Positions 3,423-21,162 of a stretch of 32,000 bases of DNA are shown here, one piece after another (within the stretch, counting starts at the first letter, position 1; every line of letters begins with the position of its first letter). This DNA is from Candidatus Paracaedimonas acanthamoebae (GTDB lineage Bacteria; Pseudomonadota; Alphaproteobacteria; Caedimonadales; Caedimonadaceae), in NCBI GenBank assembly GCA_000743035.1, contig CP008936.1, positions 1,290,001-1,322,000 on the forward strand, written 5' to 3'. Under the pieces are notes generated by a model, which was given only the letters and a program-made list of their open reading frames with translations, had not been told where the DNA came from and searched no databases. Position numbers and translations under genes: made by a program.

Positions 3423-4112
3423 ATGAAAATAAGTGAAATTATATTCATTGTTTCTTTTCTAAATTTTTGTATAAGTGGGAATCTCCAAGCTACTGATTCT
3501 TTACTTATCGAGACTTTTCCTGATGAAACATTGGTAAATATTGCTTCTTATGTTACAAAGCTCAGAGATAATAGGAACTTATCCTTCGTCTCAAAAAAAT
3601 GGAAGAATATAGCTAACGATGACCAAGTTATAAGATATATTAAGACTGATCTTTCCCACAGAGACGCGGAACACCAAGATCATGTAAGGCTCAAAAAACT
3701 TCTTCAAACGTTTCCGGCTTGTGTAAAAATCCTAGACTTAAGTTTCGTTGATCTTGATAAGTTAAGAGAGAATTTCTATCTTTCTCATTTGCCCCCTTCC
3801 CTGATAGAGCTTCATCTGGGTAATACGTATGGGTGTGAGGAGGATGTAAGTGATTCCGATATAATACACGTCGTTGCCAGCTGCCCCTACCTTCAAGTCC
3901 TTCATCTTGCCTCTTTAAACAAAGTAACAAAAGAGGGCTTATGTGCTCTACGTTCCCTCACAAGTCTGAAAAAGTTAGAGCTTTATTTTATGCTTCATAT
4001 TAAGTCAGAAGACGTAGCTGAGTGCCTTCCTAGTTTACAAGAGTGGAATATTAATGGAACAACGTTTCTGCGCTCTGGACAAGAAACCCATAAAAAGTCA
4101 AAGAATAACTAG
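3423..4112 (+). CDS. Eukaryote-like F-box / leucine-rich-repeat protein (candidate secreted effector)
   Basis: The SD AGGAG lies 6-7 nt upstream of the ATG. The N-terminus is hydrophobic. FPDETLVNIASYVTKLRDNRNLSFVSKKWKNIANDDQV fits the F-box consensus (LPDEIL..I.SYL......L..VSKRW..L..D). Downstream are FBXL-type repeats (ILDLSFVDLDKL, LIELHLGNTYGC, CPYLQVLHLASLNKVTKEGLCAL, LTSLKKLELY). Confidence 0.75.
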   Translation: MKISEIIFIVSFLNFCISGNLQATDSLLIETFPDETLVNIASYVTKLRDNRNLSFVSKKWKNIANDDQVIRYIKTDLSHRDAEHQDHVRLKKLLQTFPACVKILDLSFVDLDKLRENFYLSHLPPSLIELHLGNTYGCEEDVSDSDIIHVVASCPYLQVLHLASLNKVTKEGLCALRSLTSLKKLELYFMLHIKSEDVAECLPSLQEWNINGTTFLRSGQETHKKSKNN

Positions 4113-4952
4113 GTTCTTGTTCTTATCTAAGCCATAGGATAGTAGAAGCATAAGCAAGGAATCCCATAAAAGAAGAAGCTTTTTTGTCAAAGCGAGAGAA
4201 GACTCTTCTGAAGTATTTGATCTTATTAAAGAAACACTCGATAAGGTGTCTTTCTTTATAAAGATGTTCATCATACTCTCTTGGCTCTTTTCTGGAAGCA
4301 CGTGGAGGAATAACCGGGGTACAACTCTGTCGTTTAATCTGCTCAATAAAGGTATTTGAATCATATGCTTTGTCGGCGATAATGTTGGAATTCTTCATCC
4401 CCTCAACAAGATAGGGTGCTTGGGTGATATCATGTCTATGTCCACCTGTCAGGGAAAACCTCAGGGCTTGTCCTAAAGCATCGACAACAACATGAATTTT
4501 TGTTGTAAAACCACCCTTACTGCGACCCAAAGCTTGTTCTTCTTGAGAACCCTTTTTATATCCTGCAGCACAAGGATGAGCTCTGACAATACTGGCATCA
4601 AGCACATGGTTTTCTCCATCTTTATCTGGAGTAAGGTATTGTAAGATAAAATTCCAAAAATCTTTACAGCACCAAACTGCATAACGCTTGTGAACACTGC
4701 GCCATTTTCCGTAATAGGTAGGCAGCTCCCGCCATTGGGATCCAGTCCTCATTATATAGTAAATACCTTCGAAAAAACGTCTCGTTTTAGTTTCATTCTT
4801 GACGCGAATCTGTCTCATCCTCTTGAGAATTTCATAAATCTTTGACCACGCTTCTGGCTTGATGTAATACTTATACATGGTAATGCTCCTTTAAATTACA
4901 ATAGAACATTACCACTTTTTTTGATTTAATTTTTACATAAGTGCACAGAACC
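4112..4952 (-). mobile_element. Intact IS5-family insertion sequence (IS427-like group), 841 bp
   Basis: The imperfect terminal inverted repeats are GGTTCTTGTTCTTATCTAAG (4112 onward) and the reverse complement of 4931-4952, GGTTCTGTGCACTTATGTAAAA. By hand they match at about 16 of 21 positions with one gap. TA flanks both ends (4110-4111 and 4953-4954). A single DDE transposase ORF fills the element. Confidence 0.85.
4123..4878 (-). CDS. IS5-family DDE transposase
   Basis: The 251-aa ORF has the N-terminal region typical of IS5/IS427-group transposases (FEGIYYIMRTGSQWRELPTYYGKWRSVHKRYAVW). A DDE-domain-like remainder follows (LDASIVRAHPCAAG, ADKAYDS, YKERHLIECFFNKIKYFRRVFSRFDK). Confidence 0.9.
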   Translation of the reverse strand: MYKYYIKPEAWSKIYEILKRMRQIRVKNETKTRRFFEGIYYIMRTGSQWRELPTYYGKWRSVHKRYAVWCCKDFWNFILQYLTPDKDGENHVLDASIVRAHPCAAGYKKGSQEEQALGRSKGGFTTKIHVVVDALGQALRFSLTGGHRHDITQAPYLVEGMKNSNIIADKAYDSNTFIEQIKRQSCTPVIPPRASRKEPREYDEHLYKERHLIECFFNKIKYFRRVFSRFDKKASSFMGFLAYASTILWLR

Positions 4953-5179: not shown

Positions 5180-5430
5180 TCCTTTTGAGAAAAAATTTCT
5201 GCTACTTATGATATTTCAATACTTAAATTTTTAAAATAAGGTAACTATTAATACTCTTCCTTCTTATCAGCAAATGCTATCTATTCCTTGATATAAATCA
5301 CCTAAAATTTTGATGCCTTATTACAAATTGAGTTGGCAGCCTCGCTTAAAGTTTGTTGCTTTCCTGAGCTAAGGTTTGTATGTAAGTGGGTACATCGTTA
5401 ACCTGTGCGTTTAGAAGAAATAAAATCATA

Positions 5431-6303
5431 ATGAAGATTACTAAATCAGTTATAAGTTATATTCTTACTTTTTTTTTAATTGGCACTATTGCAATCATTT
5501 GTTTGGCAACAAGCGATATATCTTCAGTAAGAAGGTTTAGAAAATCTAGCGACCCTTTTTCAATCAATTTCAAACAACAACCGTCACGTAAAGGCTTAGA
5601 TGATCTTAGAATCTCAGGCAGTAGTTACCTCTCTCAACTAGCAATAAAAAAAGCCTTAGCTAACATCCCTTTTCCTGTATATATCGTTGATTTACGATCA
5701 GAGCCCCATTATTTCATCAATGGATTACCTGAGCGTTGGTATGGGTATAAAAAAACTGAAGTTACTCAAATTCCACAAGAAACTAAAAATGTTGACATAC
5801 TGTATCTTTTACGTCGGCTCGTAAAAACAGGCAAAATCACCCATTCATCCCAGGATACTAAATCTGAAAAAGAAATCGTCGAAGCACTTGGTTATTCCTA
5901 TGTAAACATTAATCAGACACGCCACGATGTTAACGATAGAGATTTTGTCGATTCATTCGTGAATTTAGTTAATCACATTCCCCCTAAAAGTTGGATCCAT
6001 TTTCACTGCGCAGCTGGGCGAGGACGCACAACAACTGCAATGGTGATGTTTGATATTTTAAAAAATAGAGATGTTCCTCTTGAAGATATCGTAGCACGCC
6101 AACATCTCATAGGAGGACAAGATTTGTTTAATACAACAGTGTGGGAAAATGGAACATATGCAAAAGAGAGGCTAGAAAAAAGAAAGAATTTTATTATTCT
6201 TTTTTATCAATATGTACATGATCCCAAAGGTTTAGGTCATATATCTTGGACAGAATGGTCGAAGGATAAAATTATAAACCAACGCTCATGTCTTACGTCT
6301 TAG
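5431..6303 (+). CDS. Membrane-anchored CX5R phosphatase, PTP-like (cysteine) phytase family candidate, copy 1
   Basis: The active-site signature HCAAGRGRTT fits HCxxGxGR(T/S), as in the PTP-like phytase signature HCEAGVGRT of Selenomonas PhyA. The N-terminal TM segment is ISYILTFFLIGTIAIICLA. The track ORF begins at GTG 5386, but ATG 5431 (MKITKS) is more plausible and matches the paralog. Confidence 0.75.
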   Translation: MKITKSVISYILTFFLIGTIAIICLATSDISSVRRFRKSSDPFSINFKQQPSRKGLDDLRISGSSYLSQLAIKKALANIPFPVYIVDLRSEPHYFINGLPERWYGYKKTEVTQIPQETKNVDILYLLRRLVKTGKITHSSQDTKSEKEIVEALGYSYVNINQTRHDVNDRDFVDSFVNLVNHIPPKSWIHFHCAAGRGRTTTAMVMFDILKNRDVPLEDIVARQHLIGGQDLFNTTVWENGTYAKERLEKRKNFIILFYQYVHDPKGLGHISWTEWSKDKIINQRSCLTS

Positions 6304-6458
6304 ACAACTAAAATATAATATTAACTGTTTAAATCATAACATAAACATTCGCCTCAAGCTTAATTCGAAGAGGACATTTTTTGATATATAAAAATTTAGT
6401 TCTTCCTATCAACTTGAACAGAAAATTCCATCATCTGACTTTTTTCGTAGAGAACCCA

Positions 6459-6552
6459 CTTATTAAATGTCAAAAGACCTTTTTCTTCCAAGAGAGTTTT
6501 TAGTTCCCCAGATTCATAAATTCCTCGCACCATCCCAACTCTACCAATAATC
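6459..6552 (-). pseudogene. Relic of the 3' end of grxD left by the tandem duplication
   Basis: The minus-strand translation IIGRVGMVRGIYESGELKTLLEEKGLLTFNK aligns with the C-terminus of the intact Grx4 at 7712-7810 (FIGGADIIREMYESGELKTLLEEKGLVTVNN). There is no upstream remainder and no start codon. Confidence 0.8.
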
Positions 6553-6680
6553 TTAATATAAATTATTAAAGTAATTCTTCAATTTTATAGATCTTGTATA
6601 AAGTTTATTGCTTTCTTAACCTAAGGCTTGTATGGAGTAAGAACATTTTTAACCTAGGTATTAGAAGAAATATAATTAAA

Positions 6681-7556
6681 ATGAAAATAACTAGATCAAT
6701 TATAAATTATATTCTTACTTTTGCTTTAATTAGCATTATTGCAATCATTTATTTCATAGCAAACGATATGTCTTCCGTAAAAAGGTTTAGAAAATCTAGC
6801 GACGATTTTTCAATCGATTTCAAGCAACAACCGTCGCGTAAAGGATTAGATAATCTTAGAATCTCAGGCAGCAGCGCACCATCACAGCCCGTAATAAAAA
6901 AAGCCTTAGCTAACATTCCTTTTCCTATATATATCGTTGATTTACGATCGGAACCTCATTATTTCATCAATGGGTTACCTGAGTATTGGTATGGGTATAA
7001 AAGAACTAAATTTACTCAAATTCCACAAGATATTATAAATGTTAGCCCAAAATATCTTTTACGTCGGCTAGTAAAAACAGGTAAAATCACCCATTCAGCC
7101 CAGGATACTAAATCTGAAAAAGAAATTATCGAAGAGCTTGGTTATTTCTATCTCCACATTAATCAGAAGCGCCACCATGTGGATGATAGAGAGTTTGTTG
7201 ATTCATTAGTGAATTTAGTTAATCAAATTCCCCCTAAAAGTTGGATCCATTTTCACTGCGCAGCTGGGCGAGGACGCACAACAACTGCAATGGTGATGTT
7301 TGATATTTTAAAAAATAGAGACGTTCCTCTTGAAGATATCGTAGCACGTCAACATCTCTTAGGTGGCGAGAATTTGCTTGATACGACAATATGGAAAAAA
7401 AATAGCACATACTCAAAAGAGAGGCTAGAAAAAAGAAAGAATTTTATTATTCTTTTTTATCAATATGTACATGATCCCAAAGGTTTAGGTCACATATCTT
7501 GGACAGAATGGTCAAAGGATAAAATTATAAACCAACGCTCATGCCTTACCTCTTAG
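6681..7556 (+). CDS. Membrane-anchored CX5R phosphatase, PTP-like (cysteine) phytase family candidate, copy 2
   Basis: This is a paralog of 5431-6303 with the same HCAAGRGRTT signature and the TM segment INYILTFALISIIAIIYFIA. The track ORF begins at TTG 6594, but ATG 6681 (MKITRS) is more plausible. Confidence 0.75.
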   Translation: MKITRSIINYILTFALISIIAIIYFIANDMSSVKRFRKSSDDFSIDFKQQPSRKGLDNLRISGSSAPSQPVIKKALANIPFPIYIVDLRSEPHYFINGLPEYWYGYKRTKFTQIPQDIINVSPKYLLRRLVKTGKITHSAQDTKSEKEIIEELGYFYLHINQKRHHVDDREFVDSLVNLVNQIPPKSWIHFHCAAGRGRTTTAMVMFDILKNRDVPLEDIVARQHLLGGENLLDTTIWKKNSTYSKERLEKRKNFIILFYQYVHDPKGLGHISWTEWSKDKIINQRSCLTS

Positions 7557-7670
7557 GTACTTATCGACAACTAAAAATAATATGGATCCCTAATTAACCT
7601 TAACGTAAAAATATTCGGCTCAAGTGGTAAGCTTTTTGACCAATCAAAATTTAGATTTTCTTATTAGCTT

Positions 7671-7694
7671 GGTCAGAAGATTTTATCTTCTGCC
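7671..7694. terminator. Hairpin between the convergent phosphatase copy 2 and grxD (likely bidirectional terminator)
   Basis: GGTCAGAAGAT-TTT-ATCTTCTGCC, a stem with one bulged base. It lies between the stop codons of two convergent genes (7556 and 7712), with T/A-rich flanks. Confidence 0.5.
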
Positions 7695-7711
7695 CCTTTA
7701 TTGTAAAGGAT

Positions 7712-8044
7712 TCAATTATTAACTGTCACAAGGCCTTTTTCTTCTAAAAGAGTTTTTAATTCTCCAGATTCATACATTTCTCGTATAATATCTGCCCCCC
7801 CAATAAATTCGCCTTGAATATAAAGTTGTGGGATGGTTGGCCAATTTGTAAAATCTTTTATTCCTTGGCGAATTTCAGGATCTTCAAGTACATTCACATC
7901 ATGAAATTCGGCACCTAAGCGAGTTAAAATCTGAGCAACTCCGCCTGAAAAACCACAAAGAGGCGCTCTCTTCGTGCCCTTCATATACAAAACGATAGGA
8001 TATGTCTTAAGGTGTGTTTGAATTGTCTCAAAAATAACTGTCAT
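7712..8044 (-). CDS. grxD: Grx4-family monothiol glutaredoxin
   Basis: 110 aa with the CGFS active site (KRAPLCGFSGG). WPTIPQLYIQGEFIGGADI is typical of monothiol glutaredoxins. Confidence 0.93.
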   Translation of the reverse strand: MTVIFETIQTHLKTYPIVLYMKGTKRAPLCGFSGGVAQILTRLGAEFHDVNVLEDPEIRQGIKDFTNWPTIPQLYIQGEFIGGADIIREMYESGELKTLLEEKGLVTVNN

Positions 8045-8055
8045 CTATTGCTCCT

Positions 8056-8295
8056 TTATGCAGAGTGTGGCACTTGTGTTTTAAGGCTTAAAGCGTGAAG
8101 CTCAGCTCCCATTCGTCCCTGAAGCGCTTTATAAACCATTTGATGCTGTTGTATCTTTGTTTTCCCTTCAAATGAAGATGCGGTCACAATCGCAGCATAA
8201 TGATCTTGGTCTGCAACAAGCGATTTTAATTGCACATCAGCATCAGGAATCTCTTGCTTAATTAAATGAATAATATCTTCAGCAATCATAGGCAT
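8056..8295 (-). CDS. bolA: BolA-family protein
   Basis: 79 aa of BolA/IbaG size with matching motifs (DHYAAIVTASSFEGKTKIQQHQMVYKAL, LHALSLKT). It lies immediately upstream of grxD, and BolA-Grx4 is the classic partner pair. Confidence 0.85.
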   Translation of the reverse strand: MPMIAEDIIHLIKQEIPDADVQLKSLVADQDHYAAIVTASSFEGKTKIQQHQMVYKALQGRMGAELHALSLKTQVPHSA

Positions 8296-8635
8296 TGAAT
8301 ATTCTCTTCGTCATAATAAAACTTGCAGAAAATTAACTCTTTCCTTCATAAAATGCAAGACTTGTCCATTAAATAGCTTCAGCAAGGCCTATAACACTAT
8401 TGTGACATGTAATAAACCACCGAGTTCAATAATTTCATAATAATTTAATTATTTATTAAGTTATTAGAAAGAAAATAAATAAAAAAACACGTATATTTTC
8501 AATTATTTAAAATTTTGTTTAATATTTTTTTCGTCGTTTACCGCTTTTTAATTAAATTCCTTTTAAATTAAATTAGACAATAAGAATAGAAAAACAGCAA
8601 CCCACGTTTAGGTTTGCGATATAACAAGGGAGATA

Positions 8636-10534
8636 ATGATGAGAGAAAGTATACAACATGTTATAGATAATGTCCGCCCGCCACGCGTACAAATCACGTA
8701 TGATGTTGAAATTGGTAATGCGGTTGAATCACGGGAGCTCCCATTTGTTCTCGGATTGATGGCTGATCTATCTGGTGCCTCTGAAGTTGCACGCCCTCCA
8801 CTAAAAGAACGTAAATTCGTCGATATCGCAAGCGATATGATCCCAGATGTCATGGCTGCCATCCGCCCAAGAGTAAATATTCTCGTTCCGAATAAATTAG
8901 GCGGCGACGCTAAAGAACTAAATGTTGATTTAACATTTCTTACAATGGATGACTTTGAACCTCTCCAAATTGTTGGACAAACTCCTGTTCTTAATGATCT
9001 TTATACAACAAGAACTCGACTTAATGATTTGCTCGGAAAACTAGAAGGTAATGAAGCCCTAAATAAAGCTATGGATGAAATCATGACCAATAAAGGGGCA
9101 AATACTGATGTCCCAAGTTTGATTCAATCAACTCAAATGGTCAGAGATTCTTCTCAAGAAAACTATGCTGGTATATTAATTAATGAATTTATCACACTTG
9201 TCAGTAAAGCAGATAAAATGCCTGCGGATTGTGTTGCCTTAGTTCAACAAAAAATTGCTGAACTTGACATCACGGTTAGTGCTCAACTTAATGAAATTTT
9301 GCACCACCCAGATTACCAAAAACTTGAAGGAAGCTGGAGAGGTCTATGGCTTTTAATGACAACAACAACTCAAAATGCCCACATTAAAATTCGACTTCTC
9401 AATGTAACGAAGACAGAGCTTATTCTCGACTTGGAAAAAGCTTGTGAATTTGATCAAAGCCAGTTGTTTAAAAAGGTTTATGAAGAAGAATACGGTACTT
9501 TTGGTGGTTCACCATACTCTTTCTTAATGGGTGATTTTGAGTTTGGCCGTAATCCGCAAGAGATAGAGTTATTAACAAAAATTTCTCAAGTTGCTGCTGC
9601 TGCTCATGCTCCGTTCATTGCCGCTGCAAATCCAAACTTATTTGACCTTATCAGTTTTTCTGAACTAGGCCACCCAAGAGATTTGTCCCGCATTTTTGAC
9701 TCAACAGAGCTTGGCAAATGGGCTTCATTCCGTGAGACTGAAGACTCACGTTACGTTGCTATTACCCTTCCCCATATCTTGATGCGCCTACCTTATGGCG
9801 GTGAAAATGGCCAAATGGTGATGGGGTTGAACTTTATTGAAGATGTTGATGGAACGGACAATTCCAAATTTTGTTGGGGAAGTTCAGCATGGGGACTTGC
9901 ACAAAGAATTCTTCATGCAGCAACAGAGTATGGTTGGCCAGCTGCAATCCGTGGTGTTGAAGGTGGTGGTATGGTTGAGGATCTTCCTTACTATACCTTT
10001 AAGACAACAGATGGTGATATTGCTCTTAAATGCCCTACTGAGATCTCAATTACTGATCGACGTGAGAAAGAGTTGAGTGATCTTGGATTTATTGGACTGA
10101 TTCATTGCAAAAACCGTGACTATGCAGCTTTTTTTGGCTCACAAACGTGCCAGAAACCTAAGCTTTACAACTTGGATGAAGCAAATTCAAATGCGCGACT
10201 TTCTGCTAGATTGTCTTATATTTTAGCAGCTTCACGATTTGCTCACTATATCAAGGTGATTATGCGTGACAAAATCGGCAGCTTCATGTCTAGAGCAGAT
10301 GTCGAGAACTATCTCAATAACTGGATTGCCTCTTACGTCCTTTTGACAGACGAAGCAAGCCAACCCGTGAAAGCGCGTTATCCTCTTCGTGAAGCACGCG
10401 TCGATGTGTATGACATCCCTGGGCAGCCTGGAAGTTATAGAGCCGTTGTTTTCTTAAGACCTCATTTCCAAATGGAAGACTTAACAGCATCCATTCGTCT
10501 TGTGGCTGCCCTACCAAAGCGGGCTGCAGGCTGA
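8636..10534 (+). CDS. tssBC: Fused type VI secretion contractile sheath protein: TssB (VipA)-like N-terminus plus TssC (VipB)-like C-terminus in one 632-aa frame
   Basis: SD AAGGGAG is at 8626-8632. Residues 1 to about 150 carry TssB hallmarks (PPRVQITYDVEIG, ELPFVLGLMADLSG, KERKFVDI, LTFLTMDDFEP). From about residue 160 onward there are TssC hallmarks (ILHHPDYQKLEGSWRGL, EEEYGTFGGSPYSFLMGDFEF, AAAAHAPFIAAA, EDSRYVAITLPHILMRLPYG, SRFAHYIKVIMRDKIGSF, PGQPGSYRAVVFLRPHFQ). There is no stop or frame change between the two parts. Confidence 0.88.
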   Translation: MMRESIQHVIDNVRPPRVQITYDVEIGNAVESRELPFVLGLMADLSGASEVARPPLKERKFVDIASDMIPDVMAAIRPRVNILVPNKLGGDAKELNVDLTFLTMDDFEPLQIVGQTPVLNDLYTTRTRLNDLLGKLEGNEALNKAMDEIMTNKGANTDVPSLIQSTQMVRDSSQENYAGILINEFITLVSKADKMPADCVALVQQKIAELDITVSAQLNEILHHPDYQKLEGSWRGLWLLMTTTTQNAHIKIRLLNVTKTELILDLEKACEFDQSQLFKKVYEEEYGTFGGSPYSFLMGDFEFGRNPQEIELLTKISQVAAAAHAPFIAAANPNLFDLISFSELGHPRDLSRIFDSTELGKWASFRETEDSRYVAITLPHILMRLPYGGENGQMVMGLNFIEDVDGTDNSKFCWGSSAWGLAQRILHAATEYGWPAAIRGVEGGGMVEDLPYYTFKTTDGDIALKCPTEISITDRREKELSDLGFIGLIHCKNRDYAAFFGSQTCQKPKLYNLDEANSNARLSARLSYILAASRFAHYIKVIMRDKIGSFMSRADVENYLNNWIASYVLLTDEASQPVKARYPLREARVDVYDIPGQPGSYRAVVFLRPHFQMEDLTASIRLVAALPKRAAG

Positions 10535-10586: not shown

Positions 10587-11171
10587 ATGTCAACTGGAAT
10601 AGGAAACTTCTCAAGCGTTTCAGCATCCGCAGAGAACTGGGCTAGAGGCGCAACTCAACCTGATCAAATGGTCCCTTCAGAAGCTTATCGTAATGTAACG
10701 GCAACGCCAGAATTTATGATTAAGATTGATAGTGTCGATACGAAATCAACTTTAGAGAATTTTACAGACCATGTGCAATTATTTCACTTCAATTATCGAA
10801 TTAGCCGTCTTACAAACCCTAATGCTGCTGATCAGCTCTACACATCGGCACGCGTTATCATTGAAGACCCTGTGATGGTCATCCCTAACGGTAACTTTGC
10901 ACCTATCATCTTAAATAAACTCATGAAAGGTGATAAAATTGAGACGATTCACATTGCACGCTTAGCCAACATTGCTCAAGTAAATGTGGTTGTCCAAGAA
11001 TTAACTTTTACCAACAACTACTTCCAAACGTATGAACCGAAGTATGATACCGTGGTTGTTACTTTCAGACCTGCCACTATTGAGAATAAAATCAACAGTT
11101 ACGATCAAGGTGGTACAAATACGGGTTCAACTTCAGTGAAGTTTGACTTTACTACAGGACAATTAGTATAA
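10587..11171 (+). CDS. hcp: Divergent Hcp (TssD)-like tube protein with an N-terminal extension of about 42 aa
   Basis: A strong SD AGGAGG lies 5 nt upstream of the ATG. FMIKIDSVDTKSTLENFTDHVQLFHFNYRIS resembles the Hcp N-terminal strands (FLKIDGIKGES...H...IEVLSFSWG.S). The C-terminus VVVTFRPATIENKINSYDQGGTNTGSTSVKFDFTTGQ resembles the Hcp terminal strands. Its position between the sheath gene and tssE supports the call. Confidence 0.65.
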   Translation: MSTGIGNFSSVSASAENWARGATQPDQMVPSEAYRNVTATPEFMIKIDSVDTKSTLENFTDHVQLFHFNYRISRLTNPNAADQLYTSARVIIEDPVMVIPNGNFAPIILNKLMKGDKIETIHIARLANIAQVNVVVQELTFTNNYFQTYEPKYDTVVVTFRPATIENKINSYDQGGTNTGSTSVKFDFTTGQLV

Positions 11172-13841: not shown

Positions 13842-14666
13842 ATGGATAATATAAAACACTACAAACATCCAATAATTTTTTATTTCTTATCAATTTCTAT
13901 TACCTGGTTATTTTGGTTTATTGCAGCTTATTTGAGCCATATAAATTCCCCCAATAATCATTATAGTTATATGTCTGGCATATTAGAAATAATCGGTTTA
14001 ATTAGCCCTATGGCAATCGCTTTTACAATGATGTATTTAGATCCTCATTTACGTCATGACCTACTGAGTAGGATTTTCAGTGTTTCTAATGTAAAATTTT
14101 CATATATCTTGATAGCATGTTTTCTTATGCCTATAAGCATTGTCTTGGCACAAGGAATATCAATTTTTTTTGGGTATAGTATAGACCAATTTAAATTATC
14201 CAGCGTAACGTCTTTTTCATTTAGTCTATTTTCAGCATGGTTCATGCTTTTTCTTGCCCCAATATTAGAAGAATTGGCATGGCACTCTTATGGCACAGAT
14301 TGCCTGCGTGCACGATTTAATCTTTTTACCACATCCATAATATTTGGGATGTTTTGGGTGCTTTGGCATTTGCCGCTATCATTCATTAAAGGTTACTACC
14401 ATAGCAATACACTTAAAACTGGTTGGCTTTATTTATTAAACTTTTCATTGAGCCTTTTCCCTTTTGTCTTGTTGATGAATTGGTTATATTATAAGGCAAA
14501 TAGAAATATTTTAATTGCCGTTGTTTTTCATATTACTGCTGGTTTTTTTAATGAAATTTTTTCAACTCACCCTGACAGCAAGATCATGCAAACCGCGATT
14601 TTAATCATTCTCTCATTCTTTATAATTTATAAAGAACAAGACTTATTTTTTAAGAGAGAGTTCTAA
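13842..14666 (+). CDS. CPBP-family intramembrane protease (CAAX/Abi-like)
   Basis: A polytopic membrane ORF carrying the three CPBP motifs in order: LEELAWHSYG (EExxxR-like), FGMFWVLWHLP (FxxxH) and VVFHITAGFFNE (HxxxN). The track start is TTG 13827, and ATG 13842 is the alternative. Confidence 0.7.
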   Translation: MDNIKHYKHPIIFYFLSISITWLFWFIAAYLSHINSPNNHYSYMSGILEIIGLISPMAIAFTMMYLDPHLRHDLLSRIFSVSNVKFSYILIACFLMPISIVLAQGISIFFGYSIDQFKLSSVTSFSFSLFSAWFMLFLAPILEELAWHSYGTDCLRARFNLFTTSIIFGMFWVLWHLPLSFIKGYYHSNTLKTGWLYLLNFSLSLFPFVLLMNWLYYKANRNILIAVVFHITAGFFNEIFSTHPDSKIMQTAILIILSFFIIYKEQDLFFKREF

Positions 14667-15004
14667 TTTCAAGCATCAATGCTCTGCACACAATAATCAT
14701 TGCGTAATAACTGGATTTTACTTTTAGGGATAATTTAACTAAAAATACGACGATAATCAGGTGCCTCATAAAACTAAAAAATACCAAAATGGAAAAATAT
14801 CCGTATTTAAACTTGGAAGACAGTTAAAATAAAAATATCATGCTTACAGTTGATAAGGTTTAAAGTTAAATAACACTTATTTTAAAACAGGAAACAAATA
14901 GTATATTTATAAATACTTAAATATTTTACTTATCATAAATACTGATACTTATTGTATTAATATTATTATATTAACACTTTGATTTTTAAAGAGTTATAAA
15001 AGTA

Positions 15005-19813: not shown

Positions 19814-20281
19814 CTATCCTTTTCGGTCTCCTTTTAAAATCTCAAGCTTGGTTCCAGGATTTAATTTTTGCCGTAGTTTATAAATACTTGAAGACTGATT
19901 AAGAGCTTGCATAATTTCAAGAGAACTTGGGAACTTTGCATCGTTTCTTTGCTCCCAAATTTGTTGCGCAAGATTGCGATTCTTGAAAAATTTTATCGCT
20001 AAAGTTTGAGATGAAGAGTTACCAGCCTTGTCACTCTCTTTACTTTCAAGATCTTTACCTTTATCTTGCGAACTTTTTTAAAGTTGTATTGAGGATAAAG
20101 AACTCGATGAAAAGGATTATATTTCTAACTTTACTTTTGTTTGAGCACTATTAGAGGACTCACTTGCCCGTTCGTGTCGCTGGTTTTCAATATCTCGATA
20201 TAAAGATTTCAAATTTTCATGTTCATAATTAGGCCATAAAACCATAGGCACCTCATGACTTGATGTTGCTTGTTCTTGTTT
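19814..20281 (-). pseudogene. In-frame continuation of ORF 20282-20740, interrupted by TAA codons (decaying 3' part of a secreted-protein gene)
   Basis: Hand translation of the minus strand in the same frame as 20282-20740 stays otherwise open down to the TAG at 19814-19816. The only interruptions are TAA at 20282-20284, 20117-20119 and 20078-20080. Confidence 0.5.
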
Positions 20282-20740
20282 TTACCTCAATTCACGTAGT
20301 TCACTATCAATCTTTTTTGTTTCTGCAGAAAATTGAGTTACCAAATTTTTAAATGATCTTAAATTATTCTCTATGGTTGAGATCTTTTCATCTGCTTTTG
20401 GATTTTCTAGAAGTGCAATAGCGCACTTATAAACTTCCTTTTCTAGAAAATTTTGTTTTGCTTTTCTTAGATCTAAATCTGTTGAAATCATATAATAATC
20501 TAAACAAGTTGTTATAAAATCTACAACAACTGTACGAACATTTACTTCAGAATCAAAAGAGCAATTTACTAATATTCGCCTTGCCTGTTCTAGACTTAAT
20601 TCACTTTCATTTTTTTTACTGCTTGTAACGGATAAACTATTTTTTAGAGAGTAATCTTCGTGACTTGGTTTTTCCGAAGCCAATATTTGCTGAGAAAAGA
20701 ATAATATTAAGGTGATATAAAGACTTATGTAATTTAACAT
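20282..20740 (-). CDS. Hypothetical secreted protein (possibly the truncated 5' part of a longer ancestral gene)
   Basis: 152-aa ORF with a signal-peptide-like N-terminus (MLNYISLYITLILFFSQQILASE). I recognise no family. Confidence 0.5.
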   Translation of the reverse strand: MLNYISLYITLILFFSQQILASEKPSHEDYSLKNSLSVTSSKKNESELSLEQARRILVNCSFDSEVNVRTVVVDFITTCLDYYMISTDLDLRKAKQNFLEKEVYKCAIALLENPKADEKISTIENNLRSFKNLVTQFSAETKKIDSELRELR

Positions 20741-20916
20741 GGTTATGTTTTCCAGAGATATTAATACCTAAATGTCAAATATTTACCATTATTTGCTCAT
20801 TAAAGCAACAAAACACCTATTCGAAATCTAAAGGTTAAAGATGACTAAAAAAAACTTAGGATGACTCTTTTATACTTTTAAAGTAAGATACAGGTAAAAT
20901 AATTTAGGTTTCAATC

Positions 20917-21162
20917 ATGACAAATGAACTTTCTAATCTTCCTTTTGAAGAAGCTATGCGTGAATTAGAAGCAATCGTGCGTAAGCTTGAAGAAGGCCGT
21001 CTTCCTCTTGATGAAGCCATTAAGAATTATGAAAGAGGTGCTGTTTTACGGACTCATTGCGAGACCTTGCTGAAAGAGGCCAAACTGAAGGTGGATCAAA
21101 TCGTTGTTTCGCCTGATGGCACACTGTCTTTAGAACGTTCAACCCTTGAAGATGAACTTTAA
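20917..21162 (+). CDS. xseB: Exodeoxyribonuclease VII small subunit
   Basis: 81 aa. FEEAMRELEAIVRKLEEGRLPLDEAIKNYERG is the typical XseB helix-hairpin, and the gene is followed by ispA as in many bacteria. Confidence 0.92.
   Translation: MTNELSNLPFEEAMRELEAIVRKLEEGRLPLDEAIKNYERGAVLRTHCETLLKEAKLKVDQIVVSPDGTLSLERSTLEDEL

Follow-up and report, generated by a model that had tools for sequence, protein, structure and literature searches.

To our knowledge, the sheaths of all characterised type VI secretion systems (T6SSs) consist of two chains and those of every other contractile injection system of one, and the reason for this split has never been tested. In Vibrio cholerae, the heterodimer VipA/VipB forms a three-domain protomer, in which domain 3 is composed of the two C-terminal helices of VipA and the three N-terminal helices of VipB, and a free VipB helix, residues 15-28, is gripped by ClpV (PMC4632598). 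In phages, R-pyocins and extracellular contractile injection systems (eCIS), exemplified by T4 gp18, R2 pyocin and Afp/PVC, each protomer is a single polypeptide, and contractile sheaths of this type are not recycled (PMC5807055). We report here on tssBC, a gene at positions 8636-10534 of a 32,000-nucleotide stretch of Candidatus Paracaedimonas acanthamoebae (assembly GCA_000743035.1, contig CP008936.1, positions 1,290,001 to 1,322,000 of the forward strand; the whole stretch is called the window below), in which a TssB (VipA-like) and a TssC (VipB-like) moiety follow each other in one chain. From its sequence and predicted structure, it is likely that this gene encodes a functional single-chain T6SS sheath protomer, probably operating without dedicated recycling by ClpV.

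In the Holosporales, T6SS genes are dispersed over at least four loci, one of which is a tssB-tssC-hcp module (PMC8163844). Candidatus Bodocaedibacter vickermanii belongs to this order and shares with the window the dispersed T6SS and the module, and its published gene list is without tssH (PMC8163844). Unlike tssBC, its tssB (513 nt) and tssC (1455 nt) are separate. The same module has been reported in Paracaedibacteraceae and Caedimonadaceae, where the single-gene state found in many genomes went unremarked (PMC8163844), and papers on Holosporales T6SSs list tssB and tssC as if they were separate.

The fused gene and its predicted product

The open reading frame (ORF) is one uninterrupted gene, which starts with ATG, contains no internal stop codon and holds a complete TssB followed by a nearly complete TssC (Table 1). 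A Shine-Dalgarno sequence, AAGGGAG, lies at 8626-8632, 4 nt 5′ of the start. On the 632-aa protein, Pfam detected T6SS_VipA (PF05591) at residues 11-157 (154.7 bits, cut-off 24), VipB (PF05943) at 205-506 (406 bits) and VipB_2 (PF18945) at 515-626 (154.8 bits). Of the two NCBIfam equivalogs, the TssB model TIGR03358 matched residues 7-159 (model positions 1-153 of 160, 153.6 bits, cut-off 97.25), and the TssC model TIGR03355 residues 159-627 (positions 5-473 of 473, 640 bits, cut-off 271.5). Because these scores are far above the curated cut-offs, a chance resemblance to TssB and TssC is ruled out. The protein thus belongs to both families, and it is encoded by one ORF rather than as a heterodimer of two separate polypeptides. 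No membership in the phage, pyocin or eCIS sheath families was found, the TssB and TssC families being the only profile matches.

These results bear out an earlier note on this DNA, which had read TssB and then TssC in one frame without a stop: its junction, placed at about nt 9080-9130, encloses the loop described below, and its ILHHPDYQKLEGSWRGL block does begin at residue 221 by our count. Its proposal that fusion turns the N-terminus of TssC into an internal segment is likewise supported.

An alignment-based AlphaFold2 (AF2) model of TssBC had a mean predicted local distance difference test (pLDDT) score of 83.4 and a predicted TM-score (pTM) of 0.85, with block pLDDT values of 83-89 across the junction. 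The model places helices at residues 117-138 and 140-151, then a loop at 152-158, then helices at 159-166, 172-191 and 199-222. All five helices of domain 3 are therefore predicted in TssBC, in the published proportion of two from VipA and three from VipB, and by this model domain 3 is complete. The earlier note had proposed that a single-chain model be compared with the solved sheath protomer; Foldseek gave TM-scores normalised by target length (TMt) of 0.84-0.91 to solved TssC chains, which, together with the five helices, predicts the three-domain fold with its T6SS-specific helical domain 3. The same note had suspected a truncated N-terminal region of TssC, because that region looked short; a substantial truncation was rejected, as the match to the family model begins at position 5 of 473 and each of the three N-terminal helices of TssC is predicted.

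The closest solved relative is the TssB/TssC sheath of Azotobacter vinelandii (PDB 9n4v, an extended sheath-tube complex released in 2025), which has the same fold (Foldseek TMt 0.90). The TssC part aligned to it with 672 bits and 62% identity, and the TssB part with 150.8 bits. Residues 2-156 of TssBC correspond to residues 1-155 of 187 in TssB (9n4v_B), and residues 162-631 to residues 23-492 of 493 in TssC (9n4v_A). In 9n4v the chains are separate, with 187 and 493 aa, whereas TssBC is a single chain in which some 32 residues at the C-terminus of TssB and some 22 at the N-terminus of TssC are missing. The V. cholerae protomer is more distant (37-40% identity for TssC), has the same three domains, and its domain-3 helices have predicted counterparts in TssBC; the helix equivalent to the free, ClpV-bound one of VipB is, however, internal in TssBC.

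What has been lost at the junction can be delimited by comparison with unfused relatives: about 30 residues of the TssB tail, about 20 disordered residues, and the first half of TssC helix 1. In the TssC proteins of Dyella and Paraburkholderia this first helix opens with "SLLD(S/R)I...", the counterpart of the ClpV-bound region 15-28 of VipB. In the window, the same place reads "TDVPS-LIQSTQMVRD": "TDVP" takes the place of the "SLLD" half, and of the helix only its second half is kept. As to the earlier question of whether the ClpV-binding helix is retained, the first TssC helix of TssBC is internal and has 8 residues (VPSLIQST), which does not correspond to a free ClpV-docking helix.

Similarity to the single-chain sheaths of phages, R-pyocins and eCIS is limited to the fold of domains 1 and 2 (Foldseek E 1e-5 to 1e-3), with about 10% identity and a best TM-score of about 0.3-0.5, and those sheaths are without the T6SS-type domain 3. 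TssBC is a secondary re-fusion within the TssB/TssC family, outside the phage, pyocin and eCIS sheath families. Since the C-terminus of TssB and the N-terminus of TssC are structural neighbours, such a fusion is less surprising than the earlier note held.

The same 632-aa frame was present in three independent Caedibacter-like Holosporales assemblies (L001, L002 and the Logan assembly L029). Over 150 nt around the junction there were zero indels across the four assemblies, and the differences were mostly third-position or synonymous. Nei-Gojobori ratios of nonsynonymous to synonymous divergence (dN/dS) for the whole gene against the three related assemblies were 0.017-0.027, at dS 0.65-1.28, and 0.03-0.10 for codons 140-200, which span the junction. 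The nearest genomes are the metagenome-assembled genomes (MAGs) "Caedibacter sp. 38-128" (98% amino acid identity) and "37-49" (95%), so that the window belongs with the Holosporales. In a collection of 5.8 billion proteins, the best 120 matches were all single chains with PF05591, PF05943 and PF18945, of 627-762 aa, and ranged from 97% down to 54% identity; in terms of clusters at 90% identity there are more than 120, with sources in NCBI, JGI, ENA and Logan. This also answers the proposal of the earlier note to look for domain architectures with VipA and VipB in one protein.

Recurrence of the fusion and its association with a lack of clpV

The distribution of the fusion was searched with the TssB part alone against 1.84 billion representatives of 50%-identity clusters. 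Among the best 150 matches examined, at least 13 were full-length fused proteins and 5 were truncated ones, and several more were fragments carrying N-terminal TssC sequence. Gammaproteobacterial MAGs are among the carriers, as is a named isolate, Glaciecola sp. KUL10, whose protein (WP_110429784.1) has 603 aa. In neighbour-joining (NJ) trees of the TssC core, computed without support values, fused lineages fell in no fewer than 4-5 distinct places, and each time next to unfused relatives. The Holosporales-like clade itself mixes fused with unfused forms, and tssB and tssC are separate in the rumen alphaproteobacterium L005. The linkers of different fused lineages are not homologous and vary from 5 to more than 130 residues. 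Given these scattered positions and unrelated linkers, the fusion looks recurrent, the number of events being approximate with trees of this kind. A single origin was rejected on the same two grounds.

Two motifs served as anchors, "LxGN" of TssB, taken at its end, and "ILH" of TssC. The distance from one to the other was 77-213 residues in fused proteins, against a summed 117-137 in unfused pairs, and with 81 residues the window protein falls in the most compact class. Relatives with long linkers have an extra terminal TssB helix, then a low-complexity stretch of Ala, Gly, Thr and Pro, then a full TssC helix ("REILKEMFIDGKLARD"), a layout that would fit a lost stop codon and read-through joining two disordered tails, with trimming of the linker at a later stage. 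An unfused locus illustrates how short the path may be: in L046 (572-631), tssB ends with GGA GAG TAA, one in-frame codon (AAA) follows, and then comes the ATG of tssC. As stop and start are in frame, a single substitution in the stop codon would fuse the two genes.

Several fused proteins have further peculiarities. In L036 (10001-13384), an orphan gene beside polyketide synthase (PKS) genes encodes TssB-TssC-TssB-TssC in one protein of 1127 aa (P0143/P0284). Another tandem fusion, the 2151-aa protein P0208, consists of two TssBC units, tetratricopeptide (TPR) repeats and a Ser/Thr-kinase-like C-terminus. In P0216, P0143, the first unit of P0208, and P0237, the TssB core is followed almost at once by the helix ahead of the TssC "ILH...WRGL" motif; in these, most domain-3 helices appear to be deleted, which would make a pyocin-like two-domain sheath derived from a T6SS. 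In the fused proteins of L092, L094 and L103 (781-861 aa), the TssB moiety is interrupted by a large helical insertion of about 150-250 residues.

In all, 117 loci were then annotated, of which 28 came from genomes, 80 from a scan of metagenomes and 9 from look-ups of contigs. The phmmer queries were TssA/B/C/E/F/G, Hcp, VgrG and ClpV, and clpV was scored where tssG and at least 2.5 kb downstream of it could be read. Of the 44 unfused clusters, 43 contained clpV, in nearly every case right behind tssG, and the remaining one is a planctomycete locus whose orientation is divergent. The 6 fused clusters were all without it (Fisher p=4.4e-7, ignoring phylogeny). Apart from clpV, these fused clusters look complete. 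Gene order in L063 and L070 is σ54 activator-tssBC-hcp-tssE-tssF-tssG-(173 aa)-tssK-tssL-tssM; in L092, tssK-tssL/M-tssA-tssBC-hcp-tssE-F-G-vgrG; in L033 and L074, tssBC-hcp-tssE-F-G-vgrG-DUF2169; and in L050, tssBC-hcp-tssE-F-G. On the NJ tree, the fused lineages adjoin clpV-positive unfused sisters. In L092, the cluster with the 781-aa TssBC, one ORF of 635 aa (6242-8149) contains DotU (TssL) and IcmF-related_N (the N-terminal part of TssM), which would give this cluster, besides tssBC, another fusion among T6SS core genes.

The window itself says less on this point. No Clp/AAA+ unfoldase gene was found among its 25 ORFs of at least 100 aa, in agreement with the remark of the earlier note that no clpV is nearby; as Holosporales T6SS loci are scattered (PMC8163844), this absence carries little weight for this genome. 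The further suggestion of that note, that disassembly might be different or absent, gains comparative support from the fused and unfused clusters and little from the local lack of clpV.

Proposed mechanism and alternative explanations

In the model that we propose, a loop of 7 residues connects TssB (residues 1-151) to TssC (159-632) within domain 3, the surface domain particular to T6SSs, at a place where the C-terminus of the one and the N-terminus of the other naturally lie side by side. The fused chain would polymerise and contract like an ordinary TssB/TssC heterodimer, as suggested by the N-terminus of TssB and the C-terminus of TssC, the linking-strand regions in solved sheaths, both of which match the ends of the family models. 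The covalent link would fix a 1:1 stoichiometry and allow folding in cis. C-terminal tags on VipA, for instance sfGFP, are tolerated in functional sheaths, which fits this picture. As for its origin, the stop codon of tssB was most likely lost and the short tssB-tssC spacer read through, the two tails becoming a long linker that this lineage would later have trimmed to 7 residues.

Because the TssC helix that ClpV grips in V. cholerae is internal and half deleted, and because the fused clusters are without clpV, a dedicated ClpV probably does not recycle this sheath. Turnover might instead depend on ClpB or another general unfoldase, or on proteolysis or dilution; or each sheath may serve once, without active recycling. 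The likeliest functional analogy is IglA/IglB of Francisella (T6SSii), the T6SS of an intracellular bacterium without dedicated ClpV, whose sheath, according to what Brodmann et al. reportedly found in 2017, is disassembled by the general chaperone ClpB. The relationship is distant (the IglB match to TssBC has 233.7 bits and 30% identity), and IglA and IglB are two separate chains. ClpV was probably lost first, and with it the selection for two separate chains. Indeed, the unfused Ca. Bodocaedibacter, which lists no tssH, implies that ClpV loss does not require fusion, and an order in which ClpV is lost and fusion follows is more economical than one in which fusion causes the loss.

Several points weigh against the reading of tssBC as a working single-chain protomer freed from ClpV. 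TssBC is known from its sequence and a predicted model, so that the 70-kDa product, sheath assembly and secretion are all predictions. The surviving second half of TssC helix 1 may permit some docking of an unfoldase. The absence of ClpV concerns the 10-kb flanks of six metagenomic clusters, none of them from the genome of the window, and these amount to roughly 3-4 independent contrasts, all in the same direction, on an NJ tree that was not bootstrapped. That an unfused relative, Ca. Bodocaedibacter, also appears to be without tssH loosens the association from the other side. Finally, the T6SSs of the Holosporales have been called "modified", and their firing has never been experimentally demonstrated (PMC11909080).

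We considered three other explanations. The first is an artefact of assembly or sequencing, or else a pseudogene, with a missed stop or frameshift at the tssB/tssC boundary; in its favour there is only the prior that single MAG contigs may hold errors. The unbroken frame in the window and in three independent assemblies diverged at the dS values given above, the more than 120 protein clusters that show the fusion and a dN/dS of about 0.02 make its probability negligible; the assembly error that the earlier note wished to exclude by resequencing was rejected on this cross-assembly conservation and on dN/dS. A single ORF might also be processed into two chains, by proteolysis of the linker or by internal initiation near the junction, and the sheath would then be an ordinary heterodimer. 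Long-linker relatives, with more than 100 low-complexity Ala, Gly, Thr and Pro residues, would indeed be accessible to proteases, and the fusion is known here from gene sequence and predicted model. In the window, however, the linker has just 7 residues, modelled as a tight loop between two helices with pLDDT 83-89, and a lineage that actively shortened its linker is not what would be expected if the linker were a cleavage site. No Shine-Dalgarno sequence with an in-frame start was found near the junction: AAAGGGG at 9092-9098 precedes only an out-of-frame ATG, and M168 is without an upstream Shine-Dalgarno. We regard processing as very improbable.

The third explanation holds that the fusion is a neutral by-product of genome compaction and drift in endosymbionts, through loss of a stop codon between two genes coupled in translation, with no effect on assembly or recycling, and that its association with the lack of clpV is coincidental or phylogenetic. 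In its favour, the gap between tssB and tssC is often only 3-50 nt, and in frame in L046; linkers differ freely in length, between 5 and more than 130 residues; the Holosporales-like clade holds fused and unfused forms side by side; and the unfused Ca. Bodocaedibacter lists no tssH either. Yet the fusion also occurs in free-living lineages with non-reduced genomes and full clusters (L033, L063, L092 and Glaciecola sp. KUL10), the junction is under purifying selection with zero indels, and no readable fused cluster has clpV, which 43 of 44 unfused relatives have retained in a constant place. A neutral origin therefore seems to us unlikely, though clearly less so than processing. Beyond the functional single-chain protomer that we favour for the window, a wider proposal can be made, tentatively and with rather more doubt than belief: the TssB/TssC split would be kept by selection for ClpV recycling, for which a chain end in domain 3 must be free, and loss of ClpV would lead to repeated, independent re-fusion to one chain, as in phages. 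Fused tssBC genes would then be the sign of a functionally distinct class of T6SS, relying on another unfoldase or on no recycling, some members of which trim domain 3 or duplicate the unit.

Genomic setting and significance

On its 3′ side tssBC is followed by a 194-aa ORF, tssE and then uvrB, and on its 5′ side bolA and grx lie on the opposite strand. No T6SS gene other than tssBC, the probable hcp and tssE was found in the 32-kb window. The other genes are of housekeeping type with an alphaproteobacterial flavour (bolA/grx, nfu, tyrS-like, etfBA, accBC, addAB and tsaE). The succession tssBC, an ORF of 194/206 aa, tssE is kept in L029 and L030, and tssBC belongs to a conserved module of tssBC, the probable divergent hcp and tssE, with the other T6SS genes presumably elsewhere in the symbiont genome.

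Table 1. Coordinates of tssBC, its parts and the adjoining features in the window
Feature	Position	Strand	Basis and remarks
tssBC, single-chain T6SS sheath gene	8636..10534	+	632 aa + stop, ATG start; ORF, family matches and AF2 model
TssB (VipA-like) moiety, residues 1-151	8636..9088	+	PF05591, TIGR03358; ends with helices 117-138 and 140-151
Junction loop N152-K-G-A-N-T-D158 (NKGANTD)	9089..9109	+	AF2 model; between helices 140-151 and 159-166
TssC (VipB-like) moiety, residues 159-632	9110..10531	+	TIGR03355 match; first helix shortened (VPSLIQST)
AT-rich intergenic region, 340 nt, presumed promoter region of the tssBC-hcp-tssE module	8296..8635	+	Sequence read
194-aa ORF, probable highly divergent Hcp (inner tube)	10587..11171	+	Weak profile matches and synteny
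tssE, gp25-like baseplate wedge, 168 aa	11179..11685	+	TIGR03357 77.5 bits (cut-off 53.2), PF04965

The 194-aa ORF is probably a very divergent Hcp, an assignment for which the support comes from profile-level matches and synteny only. It matched no family above threshold and gave only a weak match, below cut-off, to Pfam T6SS_HCP (E=0.041); a profile built from 5 syntenic orthologues matched PDB 3v4h_A (E=5e-4) and the Hcp 9qpe_A (E=1.3e-3). A bona fide Hcp is encoded at the same position in the fused clusters L033, L050 and L092. A phmmer search of the single sequence against PDB gave no match, BLASTP against the Hcp of L033 detected zero similarity, and a single-sequence structure model was unusable (pLDDT 32.6).

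Just 5′ of the T6SS module are two paralogous genes for phytases or dual-specificity phosphatases of the protein tyrosine phosphatase (PTP)-like type, at 5386-6303 and 6594-7556, the second with an N-terminal hydrophobic segment; both are candidate eukaryote-directed effectors. Further 5′ lies an F-box-like protein, whose domain is of eukaryotic type and typical of symbionts of amoebae and protists; it adjoins a DDE transposase of the IS4/IS5 insertion sequence families (3423-4112 and 4123-4878). The F-box-like protein and the two phosphatases are candidate host-interaction genes. Local G+C dips to 29% at 14001-15000 and to 30.5% at 20001-21000, compared with about 38-42% around; the latter dip overlaps a 152-aa ORF (20282-20740, minus strand) without a Pfam match.

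Searches of the open-access full-text literature for a natural TssB-TssC fusion brought up engineered GFP fusions or unrelated papers, and none that describes such a protein. The impression of the earlier note that none had been described therefore holds for that literature, but fused proteins are plentiful in public databases, where they are labelled generically as "sheath large subunit". The natural single-chain TssBC is thus a real variant of a known machine, undescribed though plentiful in databases. One practical consequence is that pipelines expecting separate TssB and TssC (rules of the TXSScan type, or the NCBI name "large subunit") can mis-score fused systems; another is that natural linkers offer already validated designs for engineered single-chain sheaths.

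According to reviews, the T6SS is the main candidate host-interaction machine of Holosporales symbionts, and TssBC bears on that system. With a divergent Hcp adjoining tssBC, the Holosporales T6SS may be less "incomplete" than reported, and such a divergence could be the reason why the inner tube has been reported as "missing" from the T6SSs of Holosporaceae. For the family as a whole, a conserved natural TssBC shows that the split is unnecessary to encode a sheath protomer, and the apparent restriction of the fusion to clusters without clpV offers a testable explanation, namely that the split serves recycling. Taken alone, this gene would be a modest curiosity; the recurrence of the fusion, together with the absence of clpV, makes it a specific lead on why T6SS sheaths are split.

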